This document shows, in pieces, positions 18,213 to 19,709 of a stretch of 64,000 bases of DNA. Numbering within the stretch: position 1 is the first letter of the stretch; every line of letters begins with the position of its first letter. Where the stretch lies: contig CAZPWT010000029.1 in assembly GCA_964590435.1 (NCBI GenBank), positions 66,280 through 130,279 on the forward strand, written 5' to 3'. The stretch comes from an uncultured Planctomycetia bacterium (GTDB taxonomy: Bacteria > Planctomycetota > MHYJ01 > WSZJ01). The notes beneath the pieces were generated by a model. That model was not told the origin of the DNA, ran no database searches, and worked only from the letters and a program-made list of their open reading frames with translations. A program made the position numbers and the translations under genes.

Positions 18213-19709
18213 TCAGCGATTCGCGGACCGGGCACGGATCAGCTGCGTCAGCCACCAGGCGTAATCCTCGTAGTCCCCTTCCGCAGCGAACCTCAGGTAC
18301 CCCCAGTTCCCGCGCCCCGCGGCGACCGACACGCCGTTGTTCACGGGGACCGAGCCGCGGAATTGCAGGATCGACGAGCAGAACGCCTGCATCTCGCGCG
18401 TGCAGCTTTGCGGAGCGGAAGCGCCGAATCGTTCGGTGTCCTGGGCAAGCCGGATGCGGCCCTCGGGGTCGCGCGTGACGACATCGACGAGCGTCGTCTC
18501 GATGAAGCGCTCCGTCAATCCCGCCGCCCCGGGCGAGTCGGCCCGGCGGTCGAGTCGCGCGACGTACACCGCGGCGACCCGCGCCCATGGGACAGCCCAC
18601 GTTCCCCCGTCGGCCATTTCAAAGACGAAACCGTCCGGTCCTGCGGCGGCGGAAGCGGCGGCCGCGGGGGGCGGCAGCGACCCGGCCGCGGCTTCGTCGA
18701 CCGCAAACACCGCCGGCCCGCCCGCGGCGCGCACCGCGTCCACCAGGCGCTGCGCCGTTCCCCCGGCCAGCCCCCGCGCCACGACGCCGCGGGTCGCACG
18801 GATCCGCCGCGAGGCCTCGGCCGCCGGCTCGCCGGTGATGCGCGACACCAGCGATGCCACCGCCGAGACGTCCGTAATCGAGTCGTCGGCGCGCAATACC
18901 GTCCACCCCGTCGCCGCCCTGAGGTACGGCACTTCGATCGGCGGCAGGTCCGGTCTCCGCGGAGGCGGGACTGCGGTCTCCGGCCCCAGCCGCTTCCAAA
19001 TCCGCGTCGCCGTCGACGGCTGCGGGCCGACGCGTCGCCTCCACCCCTCCCCCGCCGGCAGGATTTCCTCCGGCAACCCGCGCTTCCAGCGATCCGCCAG
19101 CGCAAAGGCGAGGCCGGCGCCGAAGCCGCCGAGGTGGGCCCAGTAGGCGACGGAGTCGTGGCCCTTGCTGACCATGATCATGAGGACCTGCTGGGCGGCG
19201 AAGACGCCGATGACCCAGAGGGCGCGGACGCTGAAGAAGCCGGGGTAGAGGAGGATGAGGTAGAAGATGCGGACGGGCTGGTTGGGGTAGAAGATGAGGT
19301 AAGCCGCGAGCACGCCGCTGATGCAGCCGCTGGCGCCGCCGAGCGGGATGTGTGCGGTCTCGGTCCCCGCGACCGAGAGGCAGTGCGCGATGTCGCCGAC
19401 CGCGCCGCTTCCGAGGTACATGAGCAGGAACCACCCGCGGCCGAGGCGGTCCTCGACGTTGTCGGCGAAGATCCAGAAGAAGAGCATGTTGCCGGCGAGG
19501 TGGAAGAATCCGGCGTGGATGAACTGGGACGTGAAGAGCTTGAGGAAGCTGAACTCGGCGGGGACGAGGCCGAAGGTGCGGAAGATGTCTTCGCCCGTCC
19601 CGGTGACGAAGCCGACGAACCAGACGGCGATGTTGATGGCGAGGATCGCCTGGGTAAGGACGGGGCGGCGCTGGGTCGGGTTGTCGTCGGAGATCGGGAG
19701 CAGGAGCAT
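18213..19709 (-). CDS. Rhomboid-family intramembrane serine protease with a ~280-aa C-terminal domain of unknown function.
   Basis: The N-terminal core has HLAGNM, the catalytic GASG (…HIPLGGASGCISGVLAAY) and the catalytic His in AHLGGFGAG. The C-terminal part (…TRGVVARGL…AVFAVDE…NNGVSVAAGRGNWGYLRFAAEGDYEDYAWWLTQLIRARS) is shared with the next gene. Confidence 0.85.
   Translation of the reverse strand: MLLLPISDDNPTQRRPVLTQAILAINIAVWFVGFVTGTGEDIFRTFGLVPAEFSFLKLFTSQFIHAGFFHLAGNMLFFWIFADNVEDRLGRGWFLLMYLGSGAVGDIAHCLSVAGTETAHIPLGGASGCISGVLAAYLIFYPNQPVRIFYLILLYPGFFSVRALWVIGVFAAQQVLMIMVSKGHDSVAYWAHLGGFGAGLAFALADRWKRGLPEEILPAGEGWRRRVGPQPSTATRIWKRLGPETAVPPPRRPDLPPIEVPYLRAATGWTVLRADDSITDVSAVASLVSRITGEPAAEASRRIRATRGVVARGLAGGTAQRLVDAVRAAGGPAVFAVDEAAAGSLPPPAAAASAAAGPDGFVFEMADGGTWAVPWARVAAVYVARLDRRADSPGAAGLTERFIETTLVDVVTRDPEGRIRLAQDTERFGASAPQSCTREMQAFCSSILQFRGSVPVNNGVSVAAGRGNWGYLRFAAEGDYEDYAWWLTQLIRARSANR

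Follow-up and report, generated by a model that had tools for sequence, protein, structure and literature searches.

Rhomboid pseudoproteases and their partnership with Cdc48 have been regarded as a eukaryotic invention for endoplasmic reticulum quality control, and for most rhomboids of bacteria little is known about what they do. The cytosolic tail of Derlins recruits Cdc48 (PMC8641752, PMC12615303), and in Bacillus subtilis the rhomboid YqgP (GlpG) is an adaptor of FtsH in membrane-protein quality control (PMC7231995). Here we describe a locus within a 64,000-nucleotide stretch of planctomycete DNA (the window) in which the gene for a AAA+ ATPase is followed by genes for two rhomboid-fold proteins, RhoB and RhoA, that share a C-terminal domain. 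We propose, with a probability of roughly 45%, that this domain is a cytoplasmic interaction module and that in the window's clade it acts with the C-terminal tail of RhoB to couple the rhomboid fold to a co-transcribed AAA+ unfoldase resembling the D2 module of Cdc48.

The locus resembles the Derlin/Dfm1-Cdc48/p97 system in several respects: RhoB combines a dead rhomboid fold with a predicted cytosolic C-terminal extension and a short linear motif that ends a flexible tail, and its gene is coupled to that of an ATPase with a motor closest to Cdc48/p97 D2. The two differ in that Cdc48 is built as N-D1-D2, whereas the ATPase here combines an unrelated N-domain with a single AAA module, in the 230-residue folded domain that RhoB carries between membrane core and tail, and in the lack of a ubiquitin system. 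Neither RhoA nor RhoB matched Pfam DER1 (PF04511) at E ≤ 1, and the SHP box (FxGxGxxLG-type) through which the C-terminus of Derlins binds the Cdc48 N-domain was not seen in RhoB-type tails, which end in [YFW]LE-COOH. Because the RhoB system is bacterial, the comparison suggests that RhoB and the Derlins lost catalysis independently.

A second likeness is to YqgP and FtsH, since there too a bacterial rhomboid with extramembrane domains serves as the adaptor of an AAA machine. YqgP, however, is catalytically active, unlike RhoB, and its accessory parts, cytosolic at the N-terminus and TPR at the C-terminus, differ from the domain described here. FtsH is itself a protease anchored in the membrane, and its gene is not known to share an operon with that of YqgP, whereas the conserved partners at this locus are a dead rhomboid and a soluble ATPase without a protease domain. 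The third comparison is with ClpS, a known AAA+ adaptor (for ClpA and ClpC): the first sub-domain of the shared domain is predicted to have the same beta-alpha-alpha-beta-alpha-beta fold as ClpS and the C-terminal domain (CTD) of ribosomal bL12. It differs from both in its low identity (11-22%, sub-threshold in Pfam), in being fused to a beta-rich second sub-domain and, in many members, in being joined to membrane or zinc-ribbon modules as well. We saw no sign of an N-degron pocket or of GTPase binding, although no examination of the pocket residues on the model was made.

In the literature that we searched, there was no bacterial dead-rhomboid/AAA operon and no description of this domain. The parts are of known kinds (rhomboid, pseudoprotease, classical AAA, bL12/ClpS fold); what is new is the domain family, which is defined here and is not yet in Pfam or NCBIfam, the bacterial pairing of a pseudoprotease with an unfoldase, and the terminal motif. 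This conserved operon offers a selectively maintained dead rhomboid together with a Cdc48-like ATPase, a defined domain that is a candidate for recruitment, and a peptide motif at the C-terminus. If the proposed coupling is real, it would provide a simple, ubiquitin-free model of how a rhomboid fold and an unfoldase pull proteins from the membrane, and the rhomboid-unfoldase arrangement would have arisen more than once.

Results

The dead rhomboid carrying the domain is the conserved partner of the ATPase

Three packed minus-strand genes, with a G+C content at third codon positions (GC3) of 0.91-0.92, lie in the order AAA ATPase, RhoB, RhoA. The ATPase gene (21338..22894) encodes 518 amino acids plus stop, in an open frame that reaches a TTG at 22972. 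RhoB (19713..21329; 538 amino acids plus stop) starts 8 base pairs (bp) past the ATPase stop and consists of a pseudoprotease core, a linker, the C-terminal domain and a tail. RhoA (18213..19709; 498 amino acids plus stop) starts 3 bp past the RhoB stop and consists of a predicted active rhomboid, a linker and the C-terminal domain, without the Tyr-Leu-Glu (YLE) tail.

Close relatives (L008-L012) kept the ATPase-RhoB-RhoA order, with RhoA proteins 53-80% identical. At three more distant loci, L020, L021 and L032, a dead rhomboid (P0010, P0014 and P0018, respectively) was found directly downstream of an ATPase orthologue. The ATPases of these loci were 55-61% identical over their full length, and the rhomboids only 26-36% identical. 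In contrast, no such ATPase was found within the contig for the long active rhomboid form (L017/L018), or nearby for the short active rhomboid form (L029), the zinc-ribbon form (L019), the HEAT fusion (L030) or the protein P0095 (L014), to which we return below. Adjacency to the ATPase was therefore seen in four of four dead-rhomboid lineages (the window clade, L020, L021 and L032) and in none of five other architectures (Fisher p = 0.008). On the strength of this contrast, the conserved partner of the ATPase is specifically the dead rhomboid carrying the domain. Only the dead rhomboid stood next to the ATPase in L020, L021 and L032, with no second rhomboid, and RhoA is an extra member seen in the clade of the window.

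Other genes were seen around the distant pairs. HEAT-repeat proteins flank the ATPase and dead rhomboid in L020 (3714-5060) and L021 (500-2293) and may be further partners. In L032 (1-2634), the ATPase and its rhomboid are preceded, at a distance of a few kilobases, by an IetA/IetS-like pair (an AAA gene, then an 858-residue Peptidase_S8) and by an AAA_14/DUF4143 gene.

RhoA retains the rhomboid catalytic motifs and RhoB has lost them

The six-transmembrane (TM) core of RhoA (residues 1-206; 19092..19709, minus strand), delimited by Pfam, motif alignment and hydrophobicity, scored 100 bits against Pfam Rhomboid (PF01694; cut-off 22.6) and has intact catalytic motifs, namely the H..N of TM2 (FFHLAGN), the GxSG of TM4 (GGASGC) and the TM6 histidine (WAHLGG). 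The core of RhoB (20655..21329, minus strand), delimited in an alignment of 55 rhomboid-fused family members, lacks all three, with VTVVWCV in TM2, AGAAAA in TM4 and AALLWG in TM6. Both proteins had been called rhomboid-fold when the DNA was read from its sequence alone. For RhoB the call holds in so far as it aligns to RhoA along the entire core (full-length BLASTP E 4e-53), but its Pfam Rhomboid score of 19.1 bits is under the cut-off and it is catalytically dead. The RhoB core also retains the N-terminal PIGDENPR and the ADNVEDRLG sequence (xDNVEDRxG in the subfamily).

To judge the selection acting on RhoB, the ratio of nonsynonymous to synonymous substitutions (dN/dS) was calculated against three orthologues, which gave 0.20-0.33 in the core and 0.16-0.21 in the C-terminal domain. 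Since the catalytic motifs are lost and yet dN/dS indicates purifying selection, RhoB is, as judged from its sequence, a maintained pseudoprotease. A decaying pseudogene was ruled out by the dN/dS of 0.2-0.3 together with an intact frame conserved across lineages. By motif alignment, about 16 of the 55 rhomboid-fused representatives are dead like RhoB. Nearly all rhomboid-fused members, the dead ones included, carry the N-terminal cytoplasmic motif M-x-x-P-I-G-D-E-N-P-R (19670-19709 in RhoA and 21290-21329 in RhoB).

The extensions of RhoA and RhoB are paralogous and predicted to be cytoplasmic

The sequence-only reading had drawn attention to the interval 18213-19064, which corresponds to RhoA residues 216-498, as a domain of about 280 residues shared by two clearly paralogous extensions. 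The paralogy was borne out: the C-terminal region of RhoA (residues 262-498) is 40.8% identical to that of RhoB over 245 columns (152 bits, E 3e-50), while 200 shuffles of RhoB gave best scores with a mean of 15 bits and a maximum of 23.5 bits. Of the shared blocks that had been listed, RIRxTRGVxAR was found in both proteins, and both match the terminal block NxGxSVxAxRGxWGYLxF.....YE[DE]YxWWLxQxIRxRS exactly. RhoA also matches LTERxxxTTLxDVVT exactly, but RhoB has a one-residue insertion there (LTHERLTQTTLIDVVT), and AV(F/P)AFAV(D/S)EE was misquoted, the actual sequences being PAVFAVDEA and PAFAVSEE with FAV[DS]E as the common part.

The extent of the domain also had to be revised, for the folded part comprises about 230 residues (RhoA residues ~269-497), and the first 50 or so residues of the interval belong to a proline-rich linker. 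This Pro/Arg-rich linker (residues 207-268; 18906..19091, minus strand), of which residues 216-268 (18906-19064) fall within the interval, had a low predicted local distance difference test (pLDDT) at the start of the structural model. It is the least conserved part of RhoA, with dN/dS of up to 0.74, and the domain itself showed 0.13-0.25. On the minus strand, sub-domain 1 of RhoA (residues 269-342) is encoded by 18684..18905, as placed by the AlphaFold2 (AF2) model, Foldseek and translation, and sub-domain 2 (residues 349-497) by 18219..18665, as placed by AF2 secondary structure and translation. Alignment to RhoA, with translation, placed the RhoB equivalents on the same strand at 20259..20477 for the bL12-CTD/ClpS-like sub-domain 1 and at 19767..20240 for sub-domain 2, with its beta-meander and two long helices.

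RhoA has TM1 plus the Pfam-covered TM2-TM6, with K/R-rich sequence straight after TM6, and no hydrophobic segment was seen in RhoA beyond TM6. Six-TM rhomboids such as GlpG have an established N-in/C-in topology. Because RhoA has six TM helices and rhomboids of this kind have that topology, we infer that the C-terminal domain is cytoplasmic, in agreement with the earlier expectation for the extension. A periplasmic location was rejected for want of a seventh TM helix.

Sub-domain 1 resembles the bL12 CTD and ClpS

No match to the domain of the window proteins was found among Pfam, NCBIfam and PADLOC models or PDB sequences, and the cyclic-nucleotide-binding and TPR domains, named beforehand as outcomes that would speak against the sequence-only reading, gave no matches to the extension. 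AF2 modeling of the RhoA domain with a 44-member alignment gave a pLDDT of 93.2 and a predicted template modeling score (pTM) of 0.89; this model replaced an earlier one from a two-sequence alignment (pLDDT 66), in which the strands of sub-domain 1 were missed.

In the model, sub-domain 1 has the order beta-alpha-alpha-beta-alpha-beta (b8-12, a20-31, a35-45, b48-53, a55-67, b73-77). All of its top Foldseek matches in the PDB were ClpS or the ribosomal bL12 CTD (prob 0.93-1.0; TMt 0.55-0.67; root-mean-square deviation ~3 A over 70-87 columns). The ClpS matches were 9ayo_B, 2wa8 and the ClpS-ClpA-N complexes 1mbu (1mbu_C) and 1r6o, with 9ayo_B, 2wa8 and 1mbu_C at prob 0.98-1.0 and E 0.05-0.09; the bL12 CTD matches were 1ctf, 1rqu and 8yeq (prob 0.98-0.99, TMt 0.43-0.67). 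Phage ClpS structures were the top matches in the viral library, in agreement with the PDB result. The Foldseek E-values are modest (0.02-0.3), as expected for a 70-residue module. At the level of sequence, eight bL12 sequences ranked at the top when the family profile was compared with PDB sequences (best E 0.004), in register over helices 1-3, and 2 of 44 family members weakly matched Pfam Ribosomal_L12 (PF00542; best E 0.0054). The window domain itself gave no PF00542 match, the gathering score not being reached, and ClpS Pfam (PF02617) matched none of the 44 members. Taken together, the model and the profiles indicate that the predicted fold of sub-domain 1 resembles that of the bL12 CTD and ClpS.

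Sub-domain 2 was modeled as a six-strand beta-meander, a long helix, a conserved loop and a long C-terminal helix, the loop being conserved in the window clade as PVNxGxSVxAxRGxWGYLxF. Its structural matches were weak and PH-like, none of them confident (Spt16-M at Foldseek prob 0.38); a PH-like domain is a sandwich of seven strands with a C-terminal helix as its cap. The earlier view that the domain could not be assigned therefore no longer applies to sub-domain 1, although it still describes sub-domain 2. The near-invariant positions of the family, G47, A58, G69, D148, R159 and W225, look structural rather than catalytic.

A terminal motif follows the ATPase more closely than the fold does

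RhoB ends in ...RRRS-APAAEQRPGAAGAS-YLE, in which the flexible C-terminal tail (19716..19766, minus strand, by translation; YLE at 19716-19724) closes with a conserved [YFW]LE-COOH motif. After a variable low-complexity linker, [YFW][LI]E-COOH was present in 11 of 16 dead-rhomboid representatives, in all four ATPase-adjacent dead rhomboids, and in several fragments and P0095. It was absent from all 34 active-rhomboid and all nine zinc-ribbon representatives. The RhoA orthologues of L010 (ending AWIE) and L012 (ending SWLE) do carry it; these proteins (P0153 and P0154) are active and lie outside the 34-representative active set. When stop-terminated open reading frames (ORFs) of at least 80 residues were counted in all fetched loci and the window, 21 of 1909 ended in the motif, and all 21 were domain proteins. 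Other subfamilies have conserved C-termini of their own, RLQLEQYG and YG[FM]P[IL]P. Association with the ATPase is matched more closely by the tail than by the domain fold.

P0095, a 431-residue protein (L014, 8001-9296) from the Planctomycetota metagenome-assembled genome (MAG) GCA_050250155.1 that was seen on four contigs, contains neither an AAA module nor a rhomboid. Its N-terminus is 41% identical to residues 33-195 of the window ATPase ORF (E 4e-38), and its C-terminus is a domain of the tail clade with RFLE at its end. A Rosetta-stone fusion is one possible origin.

The ATPase has a Cdc48 D2-like motor and an N-terminal region of no known family

The ATPase scored 100 bits against Pfam AAA, and its closest PDB sequences were Cdc48/p97 D2 (E 1e-49). 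It contains a single AAA module of the classical clade, in which Walker A (GVQGCGKS) and Walker B (VLWLDE) are intact and are accompanied by an aromatic pore loop (YIG), sensor-1 (TAN), an SRH region (RKGRFDE) and an arginine-finger region. The protein fell far under every NCBIfam equivalog cut-off, including that of the Cdc48/p97/VAT equivalog TIGR01243 (98 bits against 803), which matched a single AAA module at residues 282-491.

The N-terminal region (gene residues 1-274; 22073..22894, minus strand) belongs to no known family, and searches of Pfam and the PDB, a profile search included, gave noise only. The orthologues of L020 and L021 share 46-55% identity with it. About 350 (349) matches to this region were found, in AAA ATPases of ~510 residues, and those with a taxonomic label came from Planctomycetota, Myxococcota/Polyangiales, Armatimonadota, Clostridia and one Asgard archaeon. 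Many of the homologues are labeled COG0464 'SpoVK/Ycf46/Vps4' by JGI. Ycf46-type single-module AAA ATPases are alike in layout, with ~500-520 residues, a non-AAA N-terminal half and then one classical AAA module. The family may correspond to this type, and Ycf46 is not known to pair with rhomboids.

The domain defines a rare family with several architectures and, so far, only Planctomycetota labels

An exhaustive HMMER search of 1.84 billion cluster representatives with a two-paralog profile returned 264 proteins at E ≤ 1e-3, 79 of them at ≤ 1e-10. Word-indexed homologue searches, with a single sequence or a 44-sequence profile, had recovered near-identical relatives only, probably owing to the Ala/Arg-rich composition of the domain, and a locus search with the two-paralog alignment had recovered only close relatives, all from Planctomycetota MAGs. 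Every taxonomically labeled family member belongs to Planctomycetota.

Architectures were counted for the best 150 of the 264 members. Stand-alone or N-terminally truncated forms of ~250 residues were the most numerous (66), followed by active rhomboid fusions (34), forms with other N-terminal regions, HEAT-repeat fusions included (25), dead rhomboid fusions (16) and N-terminal zinc-ribbon forms (9). The domain is thus a rare family that reuses the bL12/ClpS fold in several architectures. In a rough neighbor-joining tree of the domain, every tail-bearing protein fell in one clade together with the dead rhomboids, P0095 and the RhoA group, the last of these being sister to RhoB.

Two of the other architectures were seen in genomic context. 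P0157 (L030, 4478-5722) is a single protein in which HEAT_2 is fused to the domain. The long-form active rhomboid-domain proteins of L017 (3545-5727) and L018 (447-2629), of ~670 residues, end in RLQLEQYG-COOH; before them lie genes for a 266-residue membrane protein and for a DUF8575 protein that is secreted and has a HELTH (HExxH-type) motif, and after them an OEP outer-membrane factor gene.

Discussion

Proposed coupling of the rhomboid fold to the ATPase

The results reported above are consistent with the proposed coupling of RhoB to the ATPase, for which the following sequence of events can be envisaged. Dead RhoB would engage transmembrane clients in the thinned bilayer around its rhomboid fold, possibly paired with live RhoA through the paralogous domains, and RhoA could clip the clients that RhoB has engaged. 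The C-terminal domain, the tail or both would keep the hexameric ATPase at the membrane, where it would extract the client or its fragment by threading it via the Tyr-Ile-Gly pore loops. In function, the whole would be a bacterial counterpart of the Derlin-Cdc48 or YqgP-FtsH pair. Of these steps, the docking itself, the pairing of RhoA with RhoB and the extraction of clients are inferred. A further claim, that RhoB-type proteins are counterparts of the Derlins whose domain and tail recruit a Cdc48-like unfoldase for ubiquitin-free dislocation, with RhoA pre-cutting clients in some lineages, is possible but doubtful.

The suggestion made from sequence alone was that the extension could be the docking site for the adjacent AAA ATPase. 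The adjacency in four of four dead-rhomboid lineages, the P0095 fusion and the ClpS-like sub-domain 1 speak for it; that most of the family lacks the ATPase, that the tail tracks the ATPase better and that RhoA has no tail speak against it, so that only part of the suggestion stands. Several observations weigh against the coupling more broadly. The adjacency sample is small, at four lineages, and most family members, active rhomboid fusions included, have no such ATPase nearby; the ancestral role of the domain is therefore more general, and docking of the ATPase is not its dedicated purpose. When metagenomes were scanned with the N-domain of the ATPase, the scan returned at least six loci, two of them with enough downstream flank, and in L025 and L026 the ATPase orthologues are followed by dinB, with no rhomboid neighbor. 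ATPase orthologues also occur in phyla that were not seen to carry the domain. The window RhoA, the very protein encoded at the interval first singled out, ends in ...ARSANR without the tail, P0095 could be an in-frame deletion across an ATPase-rhomboid operon and not a selected fusion, and the likeness to ClpS and bL12 is only at fold level (Foldseek E 0.02-0.3, 11-22% identity).

The alternative that fares best, though we consider it unlikely, takes the domain for a general module of regulation or partner binding that is unrelated to the ATPase, perhaps with a ligand, a HEAT-repeat protein or a kinase substrate as its target, and has the ATPase recognize the dead core or the tail only. The predominance of stand-alone forms fits such a module, as do the zinc-ribbon and HEAT fusions that have no ATPase neighbor. 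The subfamily-specific C-termini suggest that the tail, not the fold, is partner-specific, and HEAT proteins occur both as flanking genes of the pair, in L020 and L021, and in fusion with the domain. Yet in P0095 the domain is fused directly to an ATPase-N-like module, the ATPase-linked domains form one clade with the clade-specific PVNxGxSVxAxRGxWGYLxF loop, and no conserved pocket or catalytic residues are evident, only the six near-invariant positions.

It is quite improbable that the paralogous domains serve instead to hetero-dimerize RhoA with RhoB, which would then regulate RhoA or present substrates to it in the manner of iRhoms; iRhom-type pseudoproteases regulate partner proteases. 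Such a pairing would suit two adjacent genes only 3 bp apart whose domains are sisters, 41% identical, while their rhomboid cores are far more diverged, and it would suit the loss of the RhoA tail in the window lineage while the domain was kept at dN/dS 0.13-0.25. L020, L021 and L032, however, have a dead rhomboid only, and stand-alone soluble forms of the domain are common.

Highly improbable, in our estimate, is a role for sub-domain 1 as a ClpS-like degron reader that binds the terminus exposed by rhomboid cleavage and passes the fragment to the ATPase. ClpS structures, ClpS-ClpA-N complexes among them, were top fold matches, and the operon does contain both an active protease and an unfoldase, but sequence profiles favor bL12 over ClpS, the identity to ClpS is 11-20%, and the operons with a dead rhomboid only have no protease. 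Hardly credible is a mobile anti-phage or abortive-infection module made of the ATPase and the dead rhomboid, with the membrane protein as effector, for although the AAA module matches PADLOC IetA models (E 1e-26) and the L032 pair lies near the IetA/IetS-like AAA and Peptidase_S8 genes and the AAA_14/DUF4143 gene, the IetA match covers the generic AAA module only (residues 302-534), the IetA model NF042959 gave the ATPase 77 bits against a cut-off of 510, the operon does not encode an S8 protease, PADLOC models matched neither rhomboid protein, and the genes show conserved chromosomal synteny and ordinary purifying selection.

Neighboring genes

The window has ~70% G+C and belongs to a planctomycete chromosome; it encodes SecA, MetK, an ECF sigma factor, kinases and DUF1559 pseudopilins. 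The synteny of the operon with a kinase, the pseudopilins and a glycosyltransferase is conserved on the chromosome in relatives down to 53% identity.

Upstream of the ATPase unit, a strong, G+C-rich, terminator-like hairpin of 13 pairs (23062-23033) separates it from the gene for an 887-residue protein (23085-25748, minus strand), which has a signal peptide, a lipobox-like LAGC and no Pfam match. This gene is inserted here between a Ser/Thr kinase and the ATPase and is absent from that position in L008, L010 and L012. The Ser/Thr protein kinase (25907-28345, minus strand) has TM and TPR regions and is encoded upstream of the operon throughout the window's clade, and in L021 a kinase gene (5349-5579) follows the dead rhomboid. 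Their proximity could reflect a regulatory link or chance, planctomycetes encoding many kinases. Directly downstream of RhoA are two tandem N_methyl/DUF1559 pseudopilin-like genes (16246-16821 and 17288-17878, minus strand) whose proteins are 97% identical; the pair is a recent tandem duplication, and its arrangement is conserved in L008.

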